Shown here: positions 9,491-47,582 of the stretch, one piece after another
Position numbering within the stretch: position 1 is the first letter of the stretch
How the letters are laid out: the number at the start of each line of letters is the position of its first letter
From: a virus
Virus genome (UHGV): UHGV-0304279
Reading direction: 5' to 3' (one strand)
DNA: 53,351 bases
Translations under genes and position numbers: made by a program
Notes under the pieces: model-generated
The model's database searches: none
Told to the model about the DNA's origin: nothing
What the model saw: only the letters and a program-made list of their open reading frames with translations

Positions 9491-9520
9491 GAAACGAGGC
9501 TAACGCCTCGTTTCTTTTTG
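9491..9520 (+). terminator. rho-independent terminator ending the tail operon
   Basis: Hairpin GAAACGAGGC-taac-GCCTCGTTTC followed by TTTTTG. Confidence 0.7.
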
Positions 9521-18522: not shown

Positions 18523-18547
18523 AGCCGCCGAATGGCGGCTTTTCTTT
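18523..18547 (+). terminator. rho-independent terminator after the repressor gene
   Basis: AGCCGCC-gaat-GGCGGCT followed by TTTCTTT. Confidence 0.7.
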
Positions 18548-18804: not shown

Positions 18805-19095
18805 ATGACCGTAACAATTATGTATGGCAAATGTGATAGCAAAATAAATGCCAGGGAACGCAGAAGAATAAAAAGAGAAAACGAAAGAAAATCATCACCT
18901 GCAATCAATAAAACTGACAATGTTGATAAAGCTATTCGTTTTGCAAACGTAGAAAGATGCAAACCGAATGGCATTAAAGAGCATCGCAAAGGTGCGGCAA
19001 AATGGTATGCGGAAAACGAAAGCGGCAATTACTACCACGCAACACAACCGCGTAGTCTAGGGGAAAAACCCCTGGATAAAGTACGCTACAGATAA
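18805..19095 (+). CDS. hypothetical basic protein
   Basis: RBS AAGGAG 8 nt before ATG; first gene of the rightward operon. Confidence 0.45.
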   Translation: MTVTIMYGKCDSKINARERRRIKRENERKSSPAINKTDNVDKAIRFANVERCKPNGIKEHRKGAAKWYAENESGNYYHATQPRSLGEKPLDKVRYR

Positions 19096-19886: not shown

Positions 19887-20290
19887 TGAGTTTAAATTCA
19901 ATCACGCTTGGCGGGAATATCGGAAACGACATGGAAGTACGCTATACGCAAAACGGGAAGTCGATTGGTAGTTTTCCGTTAGCTGTAACGAATGGCTACG
20001 GCGATAATAAGCGGACGATGTGGATCACTTGCCTGGTATTCGGTGAGCGAGCGGAAAAATTAGCGCCGCATATCCGCAAGGGTGGAAAGATAGTGGTAAG
20101 CGGTCGCCTGGATGTTCGGCAATATGACCGGAACGATGGCACGAAGGGTACGGCGGTAGAAGTGGCGGTTAACGAATTCGAATTCATGAACGTTAACCAG
20201 CAAGGCCAGCAGCAGAAAGCGCCACCGCCGCAGCAGAATAACAACGGGAATAATCCTCCGATGGACTTTGACGACGACATCCCGTTTTGA
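19886..20290 (+). CDS. ssb: single-stranded DNA-binding protein
   Basis: OB-fold-like N-terminus, Gln/Gly-rich linker, acidic C-terminal tail DFDDDIPF. Confidence 0.9.
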   Translation: MSLNSITLGGNIGNDMEVRYTQNGKSIGSFPLAVTNGYGDNKRTMWITCLVFGERAEKLAPHIRKGGKIVVSGRLDVRQYDRNDGTKGTAVEVAVNEFEFMNVNQQGQQQKAPPPQQNNNGNNPPMDFDDDIPF

Positions 20291-23779: not shown

Positions 23780-24313
23780 ATGAAAAATGATTACGGCGGC
23801 AGTCATACGCCGAAAGAAATAAAAGACCTATGGCAGACGCCGAAACCTGTTTTTAGAGGAATGGATCGGGAATTCGAATTCGTCGCGGACGTGGCGGCAA
23901 ACAAGGCAAATGCATTAGTTCCGCGATATATAACCGAAGAAATGAACACGCTCCATTATCCGTGGGGAGCGGTGGCGATGCCTGGTGATTATGTCTGGAT
24001 GAATCCACCATATTCTAATCCGGGGCCATTCGTTGATAAGGCGGCGCTTGAACACCACCGAAATCATATTGGCTGTGTAATGTTATTACCCGCCGACACT
24101 TCTGTTAGCTGGTTTATGAATGGCGTGGAAACGGCAAACGAATGTCGTTTAATCACGCGCGGGCGACTGGCGTTTATCAATGCTGCGACTGGTAAGCCAG
24201 TGAGCGGGAATAACAAGGGGAGCTTGTTTCTGATCTGGCATCCACGATGCAGACATGAATGTATTTTCACGCAAATAACACGTAAAGAGCTATATGCAAG
24301 AGGTGCGGAATAA
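23780..24313 (+). CDS. phage-type DNA N6-adenine methyltransferase (Dam-like)
   Basis: Catalytic NPPY motif (VWMNPPYSN) and overall resemblance to small phage N6A methyltransferases. Confidence 0.75.
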   Translation: MKNDYGGSHTPKEIKDLWQTPKPVFRGMDREFEFVADVAANKANALVPRYITEEMNTLHYPWGAVAMPGDYVWMNPPYSNPGPFVDKAALEHHRNHIGCVMLLPADTSVSWFMNGVETANECRLITRGRLAFINAATGKPVSGNNKGSLFLIWHPRCRHECIFTQITRKELYARGAE

Positions 24314-25288: not shown

Positions 25289-26049
25289 GTGGGCTTAGAA
25301 ATTGGGTGGTGTGGTCGCTGTACGACGGCAGCGGATACGCCGTTAAAGATTGGGCCGACGCTGGTTATAAATGCTATTGCTTCAACTATGATGGCGCTAA
25401 TCACGGCGATTATGAAGGCGTCAAAATCATTCATCCGAACATTGAGTATGTCAACGTATGGATTGACAGCCATTTCCTGGCAATGTTCTCCCCTGAATTG
25501 TCTGTTTATCCAGATCCTGACATTATCCTGGGCTTTCCTCCGTGCGACGATCTTGCGGTGTCCGGCGCTCGCTGGTTTGCTGATAAGCGGAAAAAAGATC
25601 CTTACTTCCAGCAGAAGGCGGCATACAACGCAAAACTGGTAGAAACGCTTGCTGATATGTACCACGTCCCGTGGATGGTGGAAAATCCGGTGGGCGCACT
25701 GTCAACGTTATGGCGTAAACCGGATTTTATCTTTAATCCGTGCGCTTACGGTGGCTACCTGCCGGAAGATGATAAGCATCCAGCTTTCCCGGAATACATC
25801 GCCGACCGCGACGCCTACACGAAGAAAACTTGTATCTGGTGCGGGAATGGATTTAAGCAGCCGCTATTCCGGCCTGTACCTATGCCGGATGAATGGGAAG
25901 ACAGTAAACAGCACGCGAAGTTAGGCGGAAAGTCGAAGCGCACTAAGATGATCCGCTCACTAACGCCGCGTGGCTTCGCGCGTGCTGTATTCCTGGCTAA
26001 CGACCGGGCAATCACACGAACTACGCTTAACCGCGTTTTGCCGGACTGA
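25285..26049 (+). CDS. C5-methyltransferase-like protein (short, non-canonical PCD motif)
   Basis: Motif I-like LYDGSG, motif IV-like GFPPCDD (PCD in place of PCQ), motif VI ENV (MVENPVG). Confidence 0.5.
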   Translation: MSGLRNWVVWSLYDGSGYAVKDWADAGYKCYCFNYDGANHGDYEGVKIIHPNIEYVNVWIDSHFLAMFSPELSVYPDPDIILGFPPCDDLAVSGARWFADKRKKDPYFQQKAAYNAKLVETLADMYHVPWMVENPVGALSTLWRKPDFIFNPCAYGGYLPEDDKHPAFPEYIADRDAYTKKTCIWCGNGFKQPLFRPVPMPDEWEDSKQHAKLGGKSKRTKMIRSLTPRGFARAVFLANDRAITRTTLNRVLPD

Positions 26050-26050
26050 A

Positions 26051-26131
26051 GTTTACAAAATGGCGTCATTGTGTGATGAGGATCACATAATGGCGCTTTG
26101 CACCTTGTTTGCGTGTATCCGTTTTGTATAC
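26051..26131 (+). promoter_or_regulatory. intergenic regulatory region with motif copies and a CRP-like palindrome
   Basis: GTTTACAAAATGGC (26051-26064); TGTGA-N6-TCACA (26072-26087); CCGTTTTGTATAC (26119-26131) with -35-like TTGTTT and -10-like TATACT. Confidence 0.4.
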
Positions 26132-26208
26132 TTCAAACAAACAAAATGCTCTTTAAAAATCCGGTAACGCTGAAATGCGTAGAAATCACCTGAAAAGGAG
26201 AGAGCATT

Positions 26209-26385
26209 ATGTCTTTTGATAATTACCAATGGCATGACGACTACGAACGGGAAAGCGTCATGCGCGCAATGTGCAATGTATGCAGCACGAAGAAAGGAGA
26301 ATGTAACGAGTGCAACGAATGCGTAGATCGCTTGCTAAGGGCCGGACACGCCGAAAGGCTGAACGAAACAGAGAATCAAAAATAA
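26209..26385 (+). CDS. ninF: NinF-like small cysteine-rich protein
   Basis: 58 aa with CxxC pairs; position just upstream of ninG as in lambda; RBS AAAGGAGAG. Confidence 0.5.
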   Translation: MSFDNYQWHDDYERESVMRAMCNVCSTKKGECNECNECVDRLLRAGHAERLNETENQK

Positions 26386-27421: not shown

Positions 27422-27587
27422 AGATCTGCAAATAGATATTCAGCGCGCCGAGCGTGATTTAGAGACAGTCAGACAAATCCAGGCTTTTCACATGCGAGAA
27501 TTACTTGCGCTGAAAGAGCTTGAAAGAAAACTGGTGCAATCAATTTCTGATCGTAAACGACTGGCGGCGCGTTACTGGAGCAAATAA
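27405..27587 (+). CDS. hypothetical coiled-coil protein
   Basis: ATG 27405 with RBS GGGGTGA. Confidence 0.4.
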   Translation: MKNEIKDLQIDIQRAERDLETVRQIQAFHMRELLALKELERKLVQSISDRKRLAARYWSK

Positions 27588-28309
27588 TGAATTTAGAATC
27601 AATTCTAAAATTCCACTTTCCCAAATCACCGCGATTATCAGACGAAAGCCGGGGAACATCACCTGACGCACTTAATACTACGGATGCGCTTACCGCCGCT
27701 GGTATGGCGCAATCGCGCGTAGCGCTTGGTTACAGCGCTTTTTTGGGGAAGATGGAGCTATCGCAAGCAGAAAAACACAGGGCCGTAGTTTTGCTTACAG
27801 AGCGTTTAAGAGCTATGGCAAAAGATTACGAATACGTCATGGAACTGGAGGAGAGCCAGCGCAATGATTTTATTATTCTTGTTGCCGTTTTCGCGTTTCG
27901 GGATTATTGCCAAAGCGCCGCGACGGAAAAAACTTGTATGGAGTGCGGCGGATATAAATTTACGTTTGACGAATACGGAGAAAAACACCTTTGCAAAAAA
28001 TGCAAGGGGCACGGGAAAGTTCGCAATCATTGTAAACAATGCAAGGGGCGCGGCGAGATACCGGATAAAACAGCCAGCAATGCGGCAGAAATGCCAGTCT
28101 TCAAAACGTGCCGGCACTGTGGCGGGCGCGGGTACTCGCGTTTCCCGGTAGATCTCGTCCGGCAGGCTGTTAACCAGCTTGTTTTCCCGGTAAGCCGATC
28201 AACATGGTGGAAGAAATACAGGGTTTTCTATGAGGACGCCATAGCGGAGCTATTCAAAGAAGAAGCCCGCGCAGAAAGCGAAATCAAGCGAGTGACACGG
28301 GGTGAATAA
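27587..28309 (+). CDS. putative antitermination protein Q-like / DnaJ-type zinc-finger protein
   Basis: Four CxxCxGxG repeats (CMECGGYK, CKKCKGHG, CKQCKGRG, CRHCGGRG); follows the nin/rusA genes where lambdoid Q lies. Confidence 0.45.
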   Translation: MNLESILKFHFPKSPRLSDESRGTSPDALNTTDALTAAGMAQSRVALGYSAFLGKMELSQAEKHRAVVLLTERLRAMAKDYEYVMELEESQRNDFIILVAVFAFRDYCQSAATEKTCMECGGYKFTFDEYGEKHLCKKCKGHGKVRNHCKQCKGRGEIPDKTASNAAEMPVFKTCRHCGGRGYSRFPVDLVRQAVNQLVFPVSRSTWWKKYRVFYEDAIAELFKEEARAESEIKRVTRGE

Positions 28310-28509
28310 TGGATAAGCTGGAAATAAACGATCAGTTCGCTGTTATCTTATTTGAAGACAAAACAGGCGGCGCATGGTGTAAGAAAGTTACTGGTGCGGA
28401 AGCGCGTTTAATATTAGGTATGGCAAGCGCGTTAAATGAAGGCGAATTGCCTGCCATTCCTGTTAAGCCAGTGCATATCTATAAGCGGGGCGATGATGAA
28501 AATAATTAA
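28309..28509 (+). CDS. hypothetical protein
   Basis: Coupled ORF. Confidence 0.4.
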   Translation: MDKLEINDQFAVILFEDKTGGAWCKKVTGAEARLILGMASALNEGELPAIPVKPVHIYKRGDDENN

Positions 28510-28843
28510 TATCGGGTGGTTATATTGCGAAAACTGCTACGAAGACGGCATGGTCGTTAAGACTGAAAAAGGTTGTGGCCTCTTTCTGTATCAAGGCGAT
28601 AAGTTTGTTTGTCCGCGATGCGGTGGTAGTGGTGAGATAGAAATTATTGAAGATAACGCCGCCGCGCCAGAACCAGAGCGCATTGTCCTTGACGAAAAAA
28701 TAAAAATTCATCCTGATTTATTACAGCAAATTATCGATCACGTATCGGCAGCAGCAATCTACAGCAATAACAATTATCAGCGTGAAATTAACGTCAAACG
28801 TGCGATTGAGCAGTATTTCGAGGGTGATGATAATGAAGCCTAA
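28493..28843 (+). CDS. hypothetical protein with zinc-ribbon-like CxxC pairs
   Basis: CENC...CPRC. Confidence 0.4.
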   Translation: MMKIINIGWLYCENCYEDGMVVKTEKGCGLFLYQGDKFVCPRCGGSGEIEIIEDNAAAPEPERIVLDEKIKIHPDLLQQIIDHVSAAAIYSNNNYQREINVKRAIEQYFEGDDNEA

Positions 28844-29105
28844 ATTAAAAGAACATATTTACCGCCAGTTGGTTAACGAGCTTGCGGATATAGCACGATA
28901 TTACGCCGGGACACAACAGCTACGCGGGCGGCTATCTTCGGTTGTTAACCGCTATATTGATGCCGGATGCCATCGCAAAGGTGAAATTACGATGGATGAA
29001 GCCATCAAGCGCCGGACGGCTGAATGGTCAGTTAGTAACACCGGATTGACCGGATACATTGAAGGCTATAACGACTGTTTACAGGATCATAGCGATGGCA
29101 AGTAA
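28833..29105 (+). CDS. hypothetical protein
   Basis: RBS GAGGGTG. Confidence 0.4.
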   Translation: MKPKLKEHIYRQLVNELADIARYYAGTQQLRGRLSSVVNRYIDAGCHRKGEITMDEAIKRRTAEWSVSNTGLTGYIEGYNDCLQDHSDGK

Positions 29106-29403
29106 AGATCTACATTTAAACCTGAAAGGAGAATACTTTTACGCTATCCGGGCGGGAAAGAAGGTGGAGGAATACCGACTTTATAATGACTACTGGCGTA
29201 AACGCCTGGAAGGGCGGGAATATGAACGCCTGATCATTAAGCTGGGCTATCCAGCCAGCCACGAAACACACCGGATCATAAACCTGCCTTATTTCGGGTA
29301 TGAAGTGAAAACTATCACACATCCATTGTTCGGCCCTGATCCTGTAAAGGTATTCGCAATTAAGTGTGATGTGAATTGGATGTTAAGGTGGGGTGAGCAA
29401 TGA
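29095..29403 (+). CDS. hypothetical protein (possible ASCH/PUA-like)
   Basis: ORF; weak resemblance only. Confidence 0.35.
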   Translation: MASKDLHLNLKGEYFYAIRAGKKVEEYRLYNDYWRKRLEGREYERLIIKLGYPASHETHRIINLPYFGYEVKTITHPLFGPDPVKVFAIKCDVNWMLRWGEQ

Positions 29404-29615
29404 AAAAAGCTGGCCTGTCAATTAACCGCGTATTGTGCGGCGACGAAAACGAGATCCGCATAGAAATTAAATTTAGCACAGGTAAAGAGATAATCCTTTA
29501 CACGACACCTGAAAACCTGACGCTGGCACTTACTGGTAAATCTGAAACGCCGTGCGACGTCAGGTTACGCAATATTGAAATCAAGGAATTAAGGAAGGGT
29601 AAAAATGAAAAGTAA
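29400..29615 (+). CDS. hypothetical protein
   Basis: RBS GGTGAG. Confidence 0.4.
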   Translation: MKKAGLSINRVLCGDENEIRIEIKFSTGKEIILYTTPENLTLALTGKSETPCDVRLRNIEIKELRKGKNEK

Positions 29616-29823
29616 CCGTAAACGCCTGGTAAGGGCGTACGATAAAGCATTAAAGGCTTTTGACGACCTGCGACACAATAAGCGACAGCGCCGTAAATGG
29701 GCGCGAATGCTTGTTCATGAATGGCATTATCCTGATGCTGCCTTGATAGAAGGCGCACCGCCATTTACACAGGAACAAGCCGACGAAGTAGCTAACGATA
29801 ACGTTTATTACATGATGTGGTGA
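29605..29823 (+). CDS. hypothetical protein
   Basis: RBS AAGGAAGGG. Confidence 0.4.
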   Translation: MKSNRKRLVRAYDKALKAFDDLRHNKRQRRKWARMLVHEWHYPDAALIEGAPPFTQEQADEVANDNVYYMMW

Positions 29824-29827
29824 CAAT

Positions 29828-30193
29828 ATGCAAATTATCATTGATTACCTTTGCCATATATTCAATACGATTTTCGGCTTTTATCAACAACCATTCCTTA
29901 AAGAGTGGGATGATATGCTAAACGACATCCTCGACAGAGGATTAATAATGGAGGTTGACGATCTTACAATCAAATTTAATTACGAAGGTGAAATTTATCT
30001 AATTTGGGTAGGTAATAGATGGTATTCATACGCGAATCTTTATTCGCTAAATGGAAAACTTATCCCTAGCAGACAAGAATTCCGACCGCGCTTCCGCACA
30101 ATGCGCCGACTACATGACCTGCATATGAATCTATTTGAAGACCAGGAAGCACGGGAACTATTCAAGATCTACGGAGATAAATCATGGAGCTAA
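29828..30193 (+). CDS. hypothetical protein
   Basis: ORF in operon context. Confidence 0.4.
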   Translation: MQIIIDYLCHIFNTIFGFYQQPFLKEWDDMLNDILDRGLIMEVDDLTIKFNYEGEIYLIWVGNRWYSYANLYSLNGKLIPSRQEFRPRFRTMRRLHDLHMNLFEDQEARELFKIYGDKSWS

Positions 30194-30414
30194 AGATCTG
30201 GCAGGCTATCGACGTAGTTGATAATGAATTAACAATGTTTGCCACTGATGGAAAGCGCGTGGTGATCGCTACATGGACGCATAACCATGATGATATTGTT
30301 TTTCGTCGTGAAGCTGCGGAGTGGCTTTTCTCTGATGAAGGCTACACGATGAACATCGCCCAGCTTGCCAGAATGAAGGATGAAAAGCTGGTAGATAGTT
30401 ACACGACTGCATAG
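30184..30414 (+). CDS. hypothetical protein
   Basis: RBS GGAG. Confidence 0.4.
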   Translation: MELKIWQAIDVVDNELTMFATDGKRVVIATWTHNHDDIVFRREAAEWLFSDEGYTMNIAQLARMKDEKLVDSYTTA

Positions 30415-30424
30415 CGGGGTAAAT

Positions 30425-30655
30425 ATGCGTATCTATGAACACAAGCGGGATAAAACCCGCTTTTTTGTTCGTGCTGGCGTAGCGTACCAGTATCACGAAT
30501 GCGGATATATTGAGGCGCTTGCTTACGACCTGGATTTCGAACAAGAAAAGGAATGGTTTGACTTTAAGATTTACCGTAAGCGCAAACCGACGCGCGACGA
30601 GCGCCACGCTATACGTGACTTTCTAATCAGCATTGACCGCTGGGAGGCAGAATAA
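30425..30655 (+). CDS. hypothetical protein
   Basis: ORF in operon context. Confidence 0.4.
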   Translation: MRIYEHKRDKTRFFVRAGVAYQYHECGYIEALAYDLDFEQEKEWFDFKIYRKRKPTRDERHAIRDFLISIDRWEAE

Positions 30656-30948
30656 TGAAAGCGAAGAAAAAGGCAGATCAGAAAGCGTTAGTTATCGCCA
30701 CAACGGACGTATCGTTATTCACGAAGGGCGAAGAAATAGATCTTAAATTGCTTTTCGGTATGTTTGAGCCACACGAAAAGCCGTGGTTTGTTCATGAAGA
30801 CAAACAAGGCAATATGCGCGTTGTAGTGCCGGACAAAAACAGCGACATATTTTTTGCTATTCCAGACCCGTTACATGACGGGGAAATGCTGGCGGTATTG
30901 TTGATTGCTGACGCTGTTACTTACAAGGGAAAGAAATATGAAAGTTAA
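30655..30948 (+). CDS. hypothetical protein
   Basis: RBS GGGAGG. Confidence 0.4.
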   Translation: MKAKKKADQKALVIATTDVSLFTKGEEIDLKLLFGMFEPHEKPWFVHEDKQGNMRVVVPDKNSDIFFAIPDPLHDGEMLAVLLIADAVTYKGKKYES

Positions 30949-31165
30949 ATTCTTGCACGATCACGGCTACCCGTCATTAAAACGCGTAGTAGGGGAAGTG
31001 GTAGACGTTGTTCACTCTGATGATGTGACCTGCGTCATTATGGGTAAAGACCTCATTACTCACGGTGCTGACGATCACTACATTAACCCTGCCTGGTCGT
31101 ATACGTTTAGCCTGGGCGATTTTGTAGGGGATAAGGGGCGCGGACTGCAAGTAGTCGAGGGTTAA
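30938..31165 (+). CDS. hypothetical protein
   Basis: RBS AAGGGAAAG. Confidence 0.4.
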   Translation: MKVKFLHDHGYPSLKRVVGEVVDVVHSDDVTCVIMGKDLITHGADDHYINPAWSYTFSLGDFVGDKGRGLQVVEG

Positions 31166-31169
31166 TATC

Positions 31170-31385
31170 ATGGACGTTTACGAGGATTTATACCTCCAGA
31201 CAAATAGCCGCACTTTTTATTTTCTGAAAAACGGCGTCGTATATCGCAGCGACGACGGGGTGATAATGAAGGAGTGGCTATTTAAGCGTAAAGACCTGCT
31301 TGATGATCTGGTTTTCGCCGGGATATTCCGTAAACATCCGGCTAACCTGGAAGAAGAAATGCTGATCGACGAGGTATTGAAATGA
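31170..31385 (+). CDS. hypothetical protein
   Basis: RBS GAGGG. Confidence 0.4.
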   Translation: MDVYEDLYLQTNSRTFYFLKNGVVYRSDDGVIMKEWLFKRKDLLDDLVFAGIFRKHPANLEEEMLIDEVLK

Positions 31386-31633
31386 AAATGAAAGTTAATT
31401 ATTTCAGGGCGAAAGATAAGGTGACAGGAAAGCGTGTGGCTATCCTGGTTAACGATGCGCAATATATGTTTGTCCTCCAGCCGTGGTGCATGGCTGACTA
31501 TAACGATGATTATCGCCGTCACGCTGCGCGGCGGGCGGTTGGGATGAAAGGTTGGCAACCGCGCGACATGCTTAATTATTGCGACTGGAATCTGATAGCA
31601 AAATACACGGTCGATTATAAAGGGGTTTTCTGA
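31382..31633 (+). CDS. hypothetical protein
   Basis: RBS GAGGT. Confidence 0.4.
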   Translation: MKMKVNYFRAKDKVTGKRVAILVNDAQYMFVLQPWCMADYNDDYRRHAARRAVGMKGWQPRDMLNYCDWNLIAKYTVDYKGVF

Positions 31634-31845
31634 TGCAAGTTAAATGTTCATACTCAAGCAACGACAGCGTTTTCACGATTGGACGTATTTATGACATTCA
31701 CATCGTTTATGGCAACGAAAATCACACAATGAATAACTGCCTTGCCTTGATTGACAATCAAGATGAGATCTGGATATTCAGGCCGAGCTACAGTGGCGGT
31801 GAAATATCCGGCGTGGGTTTTGCTGCCAGCTTTGAACGTTATTAA
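31633..31845 (+). CDS. hypothetical protein
   Basis: RBS AAAGGGG. Confidence 0.4.
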   Translation: MQVKCSYSSNDSVFTIGRIYDIHIVYGNENHTMNNCLALIDNQDEIWIFRPSYSGGEISGVGFAASFERY

Positions 31846-31855
31846 AGGGGTAAGC

Positions 31856-32107
31856 ATGAAACATTTATATTTTGAGGTAGTGCAGACGCGTGACCGCGAT
31901 ATATTCGATGAGGGGAAAGTTTATTGCGGCGTTCAACTCCACGGCGCACCGGGCGGTGAGGCGATGGCGATAACTGGTGATGATGATAAGGTTTATTTTG
32001 CTTATGTCACACGCTTTCCACACACTGACGAGGTTTATTATCGCATCGTGTATGACTTCCAGGGCGTAGCTGTATTTTGTGAACGTGAAGGCAGTAAACC
32101 GGAATAG
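31856..32107 (+). CDS. hypothetical protein
   Basis: RBS AAAGGGG. Confidence 0.4.
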   Translation: MKHLYFEVVQTRDRDIFDEGKVYCGVQLHGAPGGEAMAITGDDDKVYFAYVTRFPHTDEVYYRIVYDFQGVAVFCEREGSKPE

Positions 32108-32116
32108 GTGATGGTT

Positions 32117-32356
32117 ATGAGTCGGAAACATAGATACCAGTGCACATACTCACGATGCAGCGCGTTTTTTAAGAATGGCAAGATCTACGAGGTTGGCGCG
32201 GCACTGGTTGACGCAAAGGATCAGGAATATATTCACGCCATTACTGACGACCAGGGCCAGCTATGGCGATTTTATAAGATGGGGTGTGGCACGGCGCTTG
32301 TTTATGCGCGTGCTGGTGGTGGTGCTTTTGCTGCATTTTCGTATGTGGGGGCGTAA
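32117..32356 (+). CDS. hypothetical protein
   Basis: Start uncertain (GTG 32108, ATG 32111 or ATG 32117). Confidence 0.35.
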   Translation: MSRKHRYQCTYSRCSAFFKNGKIYEVGAALVDAKDQEYIHAITDDQGQLWRFYKMGCGTALVYARAGGGAFAAFSYVGA

Positions 32357-32358
32357 AA

Positions 32359-32577
32359 ATGATTTTAACGTGTAACGAGTCGGAATTAGGTTGTTTTGAG
32401 GAAGGCGCACAGTATACGGCTGAAAAACCGATGGGATTGTCGCCTAAGTTTCCGTTTATCGTCGTGACTGACACTTACGGTCACTTATGGTATGCAGAGC
32501 CGCTATGCGGTATTGGTCGTTATGTTATCCGTAGTTCTGACGGGGCGAAGAAGGTAACTCTTACGGAAGAAACATAA
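32359..32577 (+). CDS. hypothetical protein
   Basis: RBS GGGGG. Confidence 0.4.
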   Translation: MILTCNESELGCFEEGAQYTAEKPMGLSPKFPFIVVTDTYGHLWYAEPLCGIGRYVIRSSDGAKKVTLTEET

Positions 32578-32596
32578 ATGTGATCTACTTCTCAAA

Positions 32597-32640
32597 GTAT
32601 ACAAAATGGCATTGTTCCTGCAGTGCCGTTTTGTTATATA
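32597..32640 (+). promoter_or_regulatory. intergenic motif pair with promoter-like hexamers
   Basis: GTATACAAAATGGC (32597-32610), -35-like TTGTTC, CCGTTTTGTTATATA (32626-32640). Confidence 0.4.
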
Positions 32641-32674
32641 TAAGTCGAGGAAAGACGGAAGGGGAGACAAGAAA

Positions 32675-32950
32675 ATGAAACGCTGGATTAAAAAAGAAGT
32701 TGAATCTCGCTTAAACGCATTTTGGGATATGGTGGAAAAAGAAGACCCCGCGCACGCAGCAAGCCCTTATCTGAACAACATTGAATATCACTACATTGCA
32801 GCAAACAACGCGGAGTTCGAGGAAGAAGGTGGAGCAGACAAGTTCGCCCAAAGCAACGCATTCGATAACGCAAACGAAATGATGATGGCAGTAATCGCAC
32901 AGGCAGAGGAAGACTGGAGCGAAAAAACATTGGAATGGGCGCGCAAATAA
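32675..32950 (+). CDS. hypothetical protein
   Basis: RBS AAGGGGAG; an in-frame upstream ATG at 32606 lies in the motif region. Confidence 0.4.
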   Translation: MKRWIKKEVESRLNAFWDMVEKEDPAHAASPYLNNIEYHYIAANNAEFEEEGGADKFAQSNAFDNANEMMMAVIAQAEEDWSEKTLEWARK

Positions 32951-32961
32951 GAGGTGGATTT

Positions 32962-33102
32962 ATGAACGCTAACGCCAAATATCCTGCATGGGTTTTCGAA
33001 CTGTATGCACGCTACTTCGAATTACTGGCACCAGGTGAAGAAGCATTGAGCATTGACGAATACGCGGAGTGTTTAGGATTTAAAGGAGACGAAGAAGAAT
33101 AA
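32962..33102 (+). CDS. hypothetical small protein (46 aa)
   Basis: RBS GAGGTGG; below the ORF track cutoff. Confidence 0.35.
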   Translation: MNANAKYPAWVFELYARYFELLAPGEEALSIDEYAECLGFKGDEEE

Positions 33103-33145
33103 AACATGGGGCCGGATGGCCCCATTAAATCAGAAGGGTTTAATT

Positions 33146-33430
33146 ATGAAAAGTGCTAAATTTATTGCTTGCTGTTTTGTTGAAGTACCTAACGATGATG
33201 TTTTCTGTAACTACGAATTTAAAGACAGTGCCGGAACTGTTCATACCATAGTAGGCAAGCGTGGTGACTGGTTATATATCACTGATAGAGACAGAATATT
33301 GACGGTTAACCAACTTATTTACATTAAACGTGGTTACGATGATTATGATCTTTTAAACAAAATAGCAAATGATGTTTTTAATAGCAGTTGCGTAGAAACG
33401 GCAAGATCTCTACCTGGTGCGGAGTTTTAA
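33146..33430 (+). CDS. hypothetical protein
   Basis: RBS GAAGGG. Confidence 0.4.
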   Translation: MKSAKFIACCFVEVPNDDVFCNYEFKDSAGTVHTIVGKRGDWLYITDRDRILTVNQLIYIKRGYDDYDLLNKIANDVFNSSCVETARSLPGAEF

Positions 33431-33432
33431 TT

Positions 33433-33687
33433 ATGGAAATAATCAAAATATGGCGCGGCAATAGTAAGGCTGATGGTGAGTTTTGCCGCGTCGTTCAATT
33501 CGTCAATTATGGTAGGTTTTATGAGCTACCTTATGACAAAAGGAAGGATGATTTTTATTTAAGCGAATCAATCCCGGTGCACAGAAAAATGAAGGCGCTT
33601 AGAGGATTATTGCGAAGTGGTTTTTATTCTTGCCCTAACCCATTAAACAATCCTGAACTGGTAGCTGTTTTTTACGAAGGAAAATAA
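33433..33687 (+). CDS. hypothetical protein
   Basis: RBS GGAG. Confidence 0.4.
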   Translation: MEIIKIWRGNSKADGEFCRVVQFVNYGRFYELPYDKRKDDFYLSESIPVHRKMKALRGLLRSGFYSCPNPLNNPELVAVFYEGK

Positions 33688-33690
33688 ACA

Positions 33691-34014
33691 ATGTCTAAAT
33701 TTATCAGCGTTAAAGTTTTCCGTGGCACTATTCCAGAAGGTGAGAAATACGGCCAATTCGGTGGAATGCCAGGTGCATGTTTCCGTGTAGCCACGGAAGA
33801 CGACGACCATGTTAAATGCTTCCATGTATCGGAGCCGCCTTTTAATCCAGAGCATCTTGAAAACCCGAATAAAATTAAAATGTTCGTTTTCGCTTTACTG
33901 ATGCTTAATCCTTTCCCTGATGTTGAAATGGAATTAGTTGGCGCGGAAGTGGTCGCGGAATACAAAATAACCCCGGCAGAAAACGGAGATTCTAAAATTG
34001 AGCGCATCAAATAA
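33691..34014 (+). CDS. hypothetical protein
   Basis: ORF in operon context. Confidence 0.4.
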   Translation: MSKFISVKVFRGTIPEGEKYGQFGGMPGACFRVATEDDDHVKCFHVSEPPFNPEHLENPNKIKMFVFALLMLNPFPDVEMELVGAEVVAEYKITPAENGDSKIERIK

Positions 34015-34252
34015 ACCTTACAAGATCCGGTGCAAAGGTGAATACCCTGGATTCACTACTGGACTCGAATACCTGGGCCATATGGGGTATGGCCCGTTCG
34101 GCGAGTTAGGAATGAATACGATTGACGACGACGGCGACAACAGGACGCTTGATCTTGATAGCGATGATTTCGAATACATCCCGCCAGTCACTTACCGCGC
34201 CGTCGATGAATTCCTGGCAGAACAAGAAGACGAGGAAGATGAAGATGATTGA
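33998..34252 (+). CDS. hypothetical acidic protein
   Basis: Probable TTG start with RBS GGAG; acidic C-terminus. Confidence 0.3.
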   Translation: MSASNKPYKIRCKGEYPGFTTGLEYLGHMGYGPFGELGMNTIDDDGDNRTLDLDSDDFEYIPPVTYRAVDEFLAEQEDEEDEDD

Positions 34253-34448
34253 ATTACTTATCCTTGCGGTAGTTCTCCTTTATCTGGCTGGCGTCATTTT
34301 AATGGGCGCTTTCCAACAAGCGGTAGATAGTGACGGCATTGTTTGGTTTGAGCTAGTTTTCTGGCCTTTCATTACAATATACGCTTTCGCTGATGCTATG
34401 CGTATTAACATCATGCGAGCTATCAAGGAGCACAAAAATGGGAAATAG
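34239..34448 (+). CDS. small membrane protein
   Basis: Two hydrophobic helices; RBS GAGGAAG. Confidence 0.4.
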   Translation: MKMIELLILAVVLLYLAGVILMGAFQQAVDSDGIVWFELVFWPFITIYAFADAMRINIMRAIKEHKNGK

Positions 34449-34602
34449 CGACCATGAATATGACGGCGTTTATCAGTCACTGGCTACACGCGCTTATTAC
34501 CGCCTTGAGGGTGAAAACGTTTTGATGCGCCTGGGTAGTCTTGATAAATGGCATGAGCCGTTTTTTACCCATGACAGCAAAAGAGATTATTACGATGGTT
34601 AA
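34438..34602 (+). CDS. hypothetical protein
   Basis: RBS AAGGAG. Confidence 0.4.
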   Translation: MGNSDHEYDGVYQSLATRAYYRLEGENVLMRLGSLDKWHEPFFTHDSKRDYYDG

Positions 34603-34699
34603 CCACGGATACTGGCGCAAGGTTGGTGATTTGTAACCATAATCGCACATAAAAAACAAATAGATTAAAATATTTCCTAACAATGCGAAATTGTAATTA

Positions 34700-34721
34700 C
34701 CCGGCCACGTGCCGGGTTTTT
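34700..34721 (+). terminator. terminator-like hairpin immediately upstream of the lysis cassette (candidate tR'-like element)
   Basis: CCCGGC-cacgt-GCCGGG followed by TTTTT. Confidence 0.55.
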
Positions 34722-34740
34722 GCTTGTTGGAGGTAAATCT

Positions 34741-34941
34741 ATGTTCGACAAAATACGGGAGGCGTGCGCGTATGCAGTAGGGGCCGTAACGGCCTTTTTC
34801 GGTGCGATAACCATCAATGATGTTGCTGTCTTTGTGGGTATCTTATCAACCGCAGGTACATTTGCCGTTAACTATTACTTCAAATCACAGGAGAACAAGC
34901 GAGCGCAAGAGGAACACGACGCGCGAATGGGGAATAAGTAA
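34741..34941 (+). CDS. holin (small, two TM helices; likely pinholin partner of the SAR endolysin)
   Basis: 66 aa with two hydrophobic helices and a charged C-terminus; RBS GGAGGT; directly upstream of the endolysin. Confidence 0.65.
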   Translation: MFDKIREACAYAVGAVTAFFGAITINDVAVFVGILSTAGTFAVNYYFKSQENKRAQEEHDARMGNK

Positions 34942-35433
34942 ATGATTAGCCAATCGCTGAAGAACAAGATTATTGCTGCGGCGGCTGGTGGGGCGATCGC
35001 TATTGCGGCTGTGATGGTTAAACCATTAGAAGGCGTGGAGTACGATCCGTATCGTGATGTTATCGGTGTATGGACTGTATGTTATGGTCATACCGGAAAA
35101 GACATCATGCTTGGTAAGACTTACACGCAATCAGAATGCGATGCTTTGTTAAATAAAGATCTCCACAAAACCGCAAAAGCGATCGACCCCTATATTAAAG
35201 TCGAAATATCAGATTTTACCCGCGCGGCGCTTTATTCATTCGCCTATAACGTAGGCGCTACCAACTTTAAAACATCAACATTATTGAAGCTACTCAATGA
35301 CGGCAAGAAATCGGAAGCGTGCGCACAGCTTAAACGCTGGATCTATGCTGGTGGTAAGCAGTGGCAAGGGTTAATTAACCGTCGTGATATTGAATATGCC
35401 GTTTGCGAATGGGGTGAAACATGGACAAGGTAA
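34942..35433 (+). CDS. SAR endolysin (T4-lysozyme-like, GH24) with N-terminal signal-anchor-release domain
   Basis: Catalytic-region motifs (EG..YDPY.D..G.WT.CYGHTG) preceded by a Gly/Ala-rich weakly hydrophobic N-terminal helix ([18 protein letters not shown]). Confidence 0.8.
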
Positions 35434-36005
35434 AGGCGTTAGTTATTGCCGTTGTTGTTTGCATTATTGCCGGACTAACTGCCGTTACATGTTATTACCA
35501 GGGTGAGGCGGCAAGGTTACAGGAAGAAGTCACGGTGACGCAAGGCGCACTAAAAACAGCAAGTAACACCATTCAGCAGATGAAGGAGCGAAACGCCGAA
35601 CTGTCAAAACTTGATAAGAGGTATCACGATGAGATTAAAGCTATCAGATCTGACATTGCCGATCTGCGCACTGGCATTGATAGCGGCGCTATCAGGTTGC
35701 ACGTCAACGCCGAGCCAGTGCGATTGCTCGACAATACCGGAGCCGCCAGCCGCATTGATGGAGCCACCTGTAGACTCACTCCCGACGCTGAATCGGCTTA
35801 TCTATCCCTCAGAGAACAACTAAAAGAGAAAGACGCGAAGATCACCGGATTGCAGGACTACATCAAAACGCAGTGCTTACGCAAAGAACAACAGCGCGTG
35901 GACGTGTCGCCGTTTCCGCCAGCCAGCCATAACCGGGCCAATCCTTCCCGCGAGCGACGGCGGAATAGTCAAAAACACGTAATGCCGGAACATCCATCCC
36001 ATTAA
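35421..36005 (+). CDS. i-spanin Rz (with unusually long C-terminal extension)
   Basis: N-terminal TM helix followed by coiled coil; contains the embedded Rz1 frame. Confidence 0.65.
35629..35823 (+). CDS. o-spanin Rz1 (lipoprotein, embedded in Rz in the +1 frame)
   Basis: Lipobox LSGC within a signal peptide, Pro-rich mature part; RBS AAGAGG. Confidence 0.65.
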   Translation: MRLKLSDLTLPICALALIAALSGCTSTPSQCDCSTIPEPPAALMEPPVDSLPTLNRLIYPSENN

Positions 36006-44493: not shown

Positions 44494-44513
44494 TTAGAAA
44501 ATTTCCTGTAACT

Positions 44514-47567: not shown

Positions 47568-47582
47568 ATCCGGGCGTTTGTC

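Follow-up and report, generated by a model that had tools for sequence, protein, structure and literature searches.

A hairpin before the holin gene of an mEpimmI-group coliphage as the probable terminator of a compact lambda-type late switch

In the window, i.e. the whole 53,351-nt stretch of virus genome UHGV-0304279 that was analysed, the gap in front of the holin gene carries a hairpin that is, with high confidence, a functional intrinsic terminator. Judged from the sequence, this hairpin is probably the tR'-equivalent terminator of a compact lambda-type PR'/pause/Q late switch of ~80 bp. By megablast the region belonged to the mEpimmI group of temperate coliphages (MagusPhagus, mEp554, mEp010 and mEp021), which are termed "Nus-dependent non-lambdoid" in PMC11893012; the passages of that paper considered here also state that the group needs N-like and Q-like proteins, and that mEpimmI phages are reportedly as common in human faecal E. 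coli as lambdoid phages. The same passages give no description of mEpimmI late-gene control, for which the probable Q target would be a precise and testable late-switch site. The features are collected in Table 1.

Table 1. Coordinates in the window of the pre-holin block, its terminator and the genes and sites connected with them
Feature	Coordinates	Strand	Description
N-like antiterminator Gp17 homologue	18805–19089	+	94% identical to mEp021 gp17
nutR2 region homologue	26036–26216	+	92% identical to mEp021 20060–20240 (region as given in the Fig. 7 legend of PMC11893012); 8.5 kb upstream of the hairpin
Q-lambda-family antiterminator gene	27587–28309	+	240 aa; PF03589, 99.8 bits
Small-gene array	28309–34602	+	~25 packed, translationally coupled genes of 54–121 aa, between Q and the block
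Putative −35	34643–34648	+	TCGCAC in the window, 2/6 consensus match; 17-bp spacer
Conserved spacer	34654–34665	+	AAACAAATAGAT; candidate Q-binding element
Putative −10 of a PR'-like promoter	34666–34671	+	TAAAAT, 5/6 consensus match; invariant in all relatives
Putative sigma70-dependent pause element	34679–34687	+	AACAATGCG, i.e. −10-like AACAAT plus GCG, 7 nt after the −10
Hairpin of the very probable terminator	34699–34717	+	Stem 34699–34705/34711–34717 (ACCCGGC/GCCGGGT), loop 34706–34710 (CACGT)
U-tract of the terminator	34717–34728	+	TTTTTGCTTGTT, 9/12 T; starts at the last stem position
SD and holin gene	34729–34941	+	SD GGAGG 34729–34733, ATG 34741; 66 aa, HP1 holin family
Rest of the lysis cassette	34942–36005	+	Endolysin 34942–35433 (PF00959), Rz 35421–36005 (PF03245), embedded Rz1 35629–35823 (PF06085)

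On the + strand, positions 34699–34728 read A-CCCGGC-CACGT-GCCGGG-T-TTTTGCTTGTT. The stem has six G/C pairs, or 7 bp if A34699–T34717 is counted, the loop is 5 nt long and the predicted energy of the RNA hairpin is −13 kcal/mol. The T-run (34717–34721) is 19 nt, and the stem end 24 nt, from the holin ATG, and the structure sits in 34603–34740, the biggest non-coding gap of a tightly tiled rightward gene array. An earlier note on this DNA had claimed a hairpin CCCGGC-cacgt-GCCGGG followed by TTTTT at 34700–34721, 20 nt before the holin start; the hairpin is present, and the distance is close enough to the 19 nt measured from T-run to ATG.

A lenient terminator scan of the window showed no enrichment (11 sites vs 10.2 expected in shuffles), a count that speaks for a chance hairpin without function. 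A stringent scan (perfect stem of at least six pairs, at least five of them G/C; loop of 3–8 nt; tail starting with TT and with at least five T in 7) gave 14 register hits at eight sites vs 0.31 ± 0.65 in 200 dinucleotide shuffles of the window, indicating that hairpins of this strength were ~45-fold commoner in the window than in shuffles. Seven of the eight sites, including the pre-holin hairpin, were on the + strand, in the same orientation as the genes. This excess, the intergenic position of the hairpin, its invariance in at least 41 relatives and an analogous structure in a more distant lineage (see below) effectively refuted the chance explanation, to which we give a negligible probability. 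The hairpin of the earlier note is real.

Further strong intrinsic-terminator candidates were found at 9491, 18523, 23327, 44513 and 46854 (+) and at 47575 (−). The candidate at 18523 (+) comes after the repressor gene and is the counterpart of mEp021 TERM_1, and those at 44513 and 46854 (+) lie between structural genes. Another strong terminator-like hairpin (30443–30462, +; AAGCGGG-ATAAAA-CCCGCTT plus TTTTGTT) sits mid-array among the small genes between Q and the block, within the 5′-terminal part of a genuine one (30425–30655; full-length match, phrog_30442). A minus-strand terminator role was rejected for the pre-holin hairpin, which has a weak tail on that strand (TAATTACAATTT) and no credible minus-strand genes nearby. 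An Rfam search of the window gave no family match, its sole sub-threshold hit (PrrF, E = 0.48) being taken as noise.

Relatives were gathered via an 18-mer (26 viral contigs), via Q homology (46 loci) and from E. coli genomes (35 genomes), and conservation was counted over 41 distinct relative sequences; one contig (L100, with P0011) stops before the lysis genes. The stem (CCCGG/GCCGGG) and TTTTG (34718–34722) were invariant in the 41 relatives, the exceptions in the stem columns being one gap at 34705 and A/G at 34699, where G still pairs with U; all stem cells (100%) were paired in the 30 sequences checked. The loop had the forms CACGT, ACCGC, CACGC, CCAGC, CACGA, ATCGC, CCCGC, CCGC and CCCCGC, four of its five columns being variable and its length ranging from 4 to 6 nt in these relatives. 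The probability that all four variable hairpin positions fall in the five loop columns is C(5,4)/C(17,4) = 0.002. With its unvarying stem, the group offered no compensatory changes.

An invariant stem with a loop variable in sequence and length fits an RNA hairpin, not a DNA site of fixed spacing. We consider it highly improbable that CCCGGC..GCCGGG is a DNA operator or an mRNA-stabilising stem-loop and no terminator. The inverted repeat is perfect and highly conserved, and a 5′-proximal or 3′-terminal hairpin could protect RNA, but an arm spacing of 4, 5 or 6 nt and a hypervariable centre misfit a dimeric DNA site, and the invariant T-run right after the stem is a terminator signature. A stabilising role would be compatible with termination and secondary to it. 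Evidence against both roles also came from four loci (L091–L094) that share the genome plan but have a Q just 50% identical to that of the window and an unalignable intergenic region. In L091 this region ends with a different 10-bp hairpin, AAGGCTGGAA-TTG-TTCCGGCCTT, then TATTTTTTT, an SD and, 21 nt later, the holin start. An unrelated hairpin with a T-run at the same place indicated that the structure was conserved independently of sequence, and the lack of an Rfam match for the window likewise counted against an operator or stabiliser.

Loci L091–L094 (Logan assemblies, e.g. SRR23253395) represent a second, more distant phage lineage of ~53 kb. Their gene order is that of the window: ERF, SSB, Dam, NinG, RusA, Q, small-gene array, HP1 holin, lysozyme, Rz and Sf6-type TerS.

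The earlier note had also named an unrecognised late promoter within 34603–34699 as one of two possible needs, the other being antitermination, and a conserved promoter-like −10 with a lambda-like pause element, consistent with such a promoter, is present there. The sequences GATTAAAATA (34663–72) and AACAATGC (34679–86) were invariant, including in 20 loci retrieved only via Q plus lysozyme homology. About two thirds of the relatives have TTGTAG (3/6), TTGTGG or TTGTAT as the −35; across all forms of the hexamer, that of the window included, position 1 (T) and position 3 (G) are invariant. Within the spacer, AAACAA (34654–34659) and GAT were invariant in relatives, and by its position the conserved AAACAA..GAT may be the Q-binding element. 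The distance from AAACAA to the pause element was not strictly fixed, being 25 nt in the window and in L091 and 24 nt in L095. Relatives carry either of two Q alleles (240 or 242 aa) and either of two −35/spacer alleles, and the two did not covary.

Positions 34654–34699 were more conserved than the coding sequence on either flank, and homology between relatives started repeatedly at ~34654, or at ~34636 in two allelic forms, whatever the upstream gene. The conserved module start at ~34636 was seen in at least five different upstream gene contexts, and the block persisted where the upstream gene or the holin allele was swapped. Two alternative −10 hexamers, TGTAAT (34692–97; TGTAAC or TATAAC in relatives) and CATAAT (34638–43; CGTATT in relatives), were rejected as not conserved.

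A promoter scan of the window did not list the site 34643–34671, and a promoter-plus-pause regular expression alone showed no enrichment (three sites in the window vs 4.2 expected). A composite motif, which was defined after the site was seen (−10, 5–7 nt, AAYNAT-G and a terminator within 60 nt), occurred once on both strands of the 53-kb window, at the pre-holin block, as compared with 0.049 per window in shuffles. Its recovery at the corresponding position in L091 and, in L102 and L103, right behind Q was independent. A scan of one genome per species with ATTAAAATN7AACAATGCGAA gave 13 scattered hits in unrelated taxa, which were taken as chance; in that scan the block was confined to this E. 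coli phage group.

In lambda, Q loading at +16 requires a sigma70-dependent pause element, AACGAT at +1 to +6 with GGG (PMC4005639), and Q binds between −35 and −10 (PMC9388147). Lambda PR' reads TTGACT-17-TAAATT-6 nt-AACGATGGG (AACGAT-GGG). The window is alike in having a Q of the same family (PF03589), a −10 hexamer (putative in the window) followed after 6–7 nt by −10-like AAC(G/A)AT plus a G-rich triplet, and an intrinsic terminator followed by holin, endolysin, Rz/Rz1 and morphogenesis genes. In contrast to lambda, and to the described Q cassettes, in which Q is immediately upstream of PR' (PMC9388147), in the window 6.35 kb separates Q from the block downstream of it. The hairpin starts at ~+21 in the window vs ~+170–190 in lambda, so the predicted terminated RNA would be ~43 nt long, as against the 194 nt of lambda 6S RNA. 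The window also differs in its weak −35, in a terminator only 19 nt from the holin start codon, abutting the holin ribosome-binding site, and in a 31-aa zinc-finger-like insertion in its Q.

Related Q genes (34–37% identity) were followed directly by the same layout in prophages of three genera: TAATTT-gttct-AACGATGGG in Citrobacter (L097), TAATTT-tgctct-AACGATGGG in Enterobacter (L098) and TAATTT-ctttct-AACGATGGG in Serratia (L099). Viral contigs had TAATTT-ctcta-AATCATGGG directly after a related Q, and the pause elements directly downstream of Q in the related-Q loci were CTAACGATGGG or AATCATGGG. In these prophages the terminators start only ~25, 31 and 43 nt past the pause element, which provides natural precedents for very short leaders in this Q family. 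Unlike the window, these three prophages have Q directly upstream, a better −35 (TTTACT) and lysis genes further downstream of the terminator. In L095, whose Q is 76% identical to that of the window, the layout was TAAAAT-atcctc-AACAATGCA, and in L091 it was TATAAT-tccctc-AATAATGGC, with the L091 hairpin 17 nt further on.

The weak −35, the two tandem −10-like hexamers and the position of the block amid a long co-directional transcription unit would also suit a promoter-independent Q-loading site, where an arriving polymerase re-binds sigma70 at TAAAAT/AACAAT, pauses and is modified by Q at AAACAA..GAT. Such a site seems very unlikely to us, being less parsimonious than an ordinary weak promoter, and the relatives with an adjacent Q have a recognisable −35 (TTTACT) at the right spacing.

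Full-length comparison by BLASTP showed 33% identity between window Q and lambda Q (E = 3e-45), apart from the 31-aa insertion. From the Q stop (28307–09) to the block there are 6,354 nt with ~25 genes, most of them with full-length PHROG matches of unknown function. This distance is 1.9–6.7 kb in relatives, which marks the array as hypervariable accessory DNA on the upstream side of the presumed late promoter. Immediately behind Q a promoter was ruled out: the stop codon of Q overlaps the following ATG, leaving no room for one. No other promoter-plus-pause-element candidates were found near Q. With neither non-coding space nor another candidate near Q, the pre-holin gap is the only plausible Q site. 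Downstream of the hairpin are the genes for holin (PF16080, 57.7 bits; 94% identical to mEp021 gp46), endolysin, Rz/Rz1, TerS and TerL. The window also carries a repressor homologue, NinG and RusA.

If the block is a late switch of the lambda type, a weak constitutive sigma70 promoter would start transcription at ~34678–34679, AACAAT-GCG at +1 to +9 would hold sigma70, and polymerase would pause at ~+16/+17 (~34694–34695). Without Q, escape from the pause would lead to termination at the hairpin and U-tract (+21 to ~+43; ~34720–25). With Q on the conserved spacer DNA, a terminator-resistant polymerase would proceed through the holin, endolysin, spanin, terminase and structural genes. The hairpin would also close the upstream delayed-early unit (Q plus ~25 small genes). 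N-modified polymerase passes lambda tR', and polymerase modified by Gp17 at nutR1 or nutR2 would likewise read through the hairpin. We infer promoter activity, pausing, Q loading at the block and termination efficiency from the sequence.

The earlier note had reasoned that lysis and structural gene expression would need antitermination or a late promoter, as in the PR'-tR' arrangement of lambda, and the sequence evidence supports this interpretation as far as it goes. Two predicted lambda-type antiterminators are encoded in the window, the Q-lambda-family protein and the N-like Gp17 with nutR1 and nutR2, which agrees with a need for antitermination. Gp17 is described as an N-like antiterminator acting at nutL, nutR1 and nutR2 (PMC11893012, citing Valencia-Toxqui 2023, in the passages considered), and the nutR1 and nutR2 regions of the window, on the same strand as the hairpin and upstream of it, are 92–95% identical to those of mEp021.

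These elements allow a reading in which the hairpin only ends the delayed-early right operon and is passed by Gp17 with nutR1 or nutR2 alone, the block is no promoter, and Q acts elsewhere or not at all. Gp17 and the nutR regions are suitably placed for this, and Gp17-dependent read-through of mEp021 terminators is documented in PMC11893012, where the Fig. 7 legend, within the passages considered, calls terminators t1, t2 and t5 experimentally demonstrated. The weakness of the −35 and the distance of Q from the block point the same way. But this reading would leave an intact lambda-family Q without a target, there being no other candidate or non-coding space near Q, and would leave unexplained why TAAAAT-N7-AACAATGC is invariant and why the layout recurs in L091 and after related Q genes. 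We regard it as unlikely, and favour the late switch with the hairpin as its tR' equivalent.

In the GenBank record of mEp021 (MH706966.1), the homologous hairpin is annotated, as a prediction, "terminator TERM_5; score=100" (24296–24312), directly before holin gp46, and a "putative late gene regulator Q" is annotated 1.9 kb upstream of it. We assume that t5 is TERM_5. The mEp021 site has the same position before the holin gene, an identical stem and T-tract, and 94.5% identity over 34654–34743; it differs from the window in the loop (CCCGC vs CACGT) and in the −35/spacer allele (TTGTAG vs TCGCAC). The record and the passages of PMC11893012 considered here treat the hairpin as a terminator for N-like (Gp17) antitermination, whereas a late promoter or pause element is neither annotated in the former nor described in the latter. 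The supplements of PMC11893012 hold nothing on terminators. The terminator was thus already annotated in a close relative, and the probable late promoter, the pause element and the displaced Q would be modest additions.

If these additions hold, the Q-lambda mechanism would tolerate kilobases of accessory genes between the Q gene and its presumed target, as well as a leader as short as ~43 nt. Two predictions follow, namely a constitutive RNA of ~43 nt in lysogens and the usability of a small DNA element (34636–34728) as a Q-dependent switch. The general picture of lambda-type regulation would be unchanged, this being expected biology and no surprise.

The read-through RNA was predicted to fold into a long interrupted helix nested around the terminator hairpin, in which 34660–34678 (the −10 and a CU-rich discriminator) pairs with the holin SD and AUG (34729–34742); ATAGATT/AATCTAT is a perfect 7-mer complement between the two segments. 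An RNA started at the proposed +1 would be without the SD-pairing arm. In each of the five lineages compared, L091 included, the native 60 nt upstream gave a lower predicted SD-to-AUG accessibility than shuffled versions did (fraction of shuffles at or below native, 0–0.04). Within the mEpimmI group, covariation of the SD-sequestering structure was no better than in column shuffles, and three of its pairs were broken in 11–20 of the 30 sequences.

Work by McPheeters and colleagues in 1986 is said to have found the start of T4 gene e (lysozyme) occluded in early read-through transcripts. In the folds predicted here, SD and AUG are likewise paired with sequence upstream of the late start; unlike T4 gene e, this pairing, which is predicted only and lacks within-group covariation, would act alongside a terminator and Q antitermination. 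We raise only tentatively, as a doubtful model, a dual gate on lysis in which a Q-dependent promoter/pause/terminator switch of ~80 bp, far from the Q gene, is joined by an anti-SD arm that is specified by the DNA of the late −10 and discriminator, and that occludes the holin SD and AUG in early, Gp17-antiterminated RNA. If true, the holin would be translated only from late-promoter transcripts, and the logic of T4 gene e would be fused to lambda-type antitermination in a temperate phage.

Two gene products of the region showed further features. The insertion in Q (residues ~117–147) has extra CxxC motifs, with a sub-threshold match to Pfam DnaJ_CXXCXGXG, and is common to homologues of 240–281 aa in Escherichia, Citrobacter, Enterobacter, Serratia and Xenorhabdus. 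The Rz spanin ORF encodes 194 aa; the mEp021 stop codon is absent from it, and its C-terminus is 38 aa longer than that of mEp021 Rz (156 aa, 87% identical).
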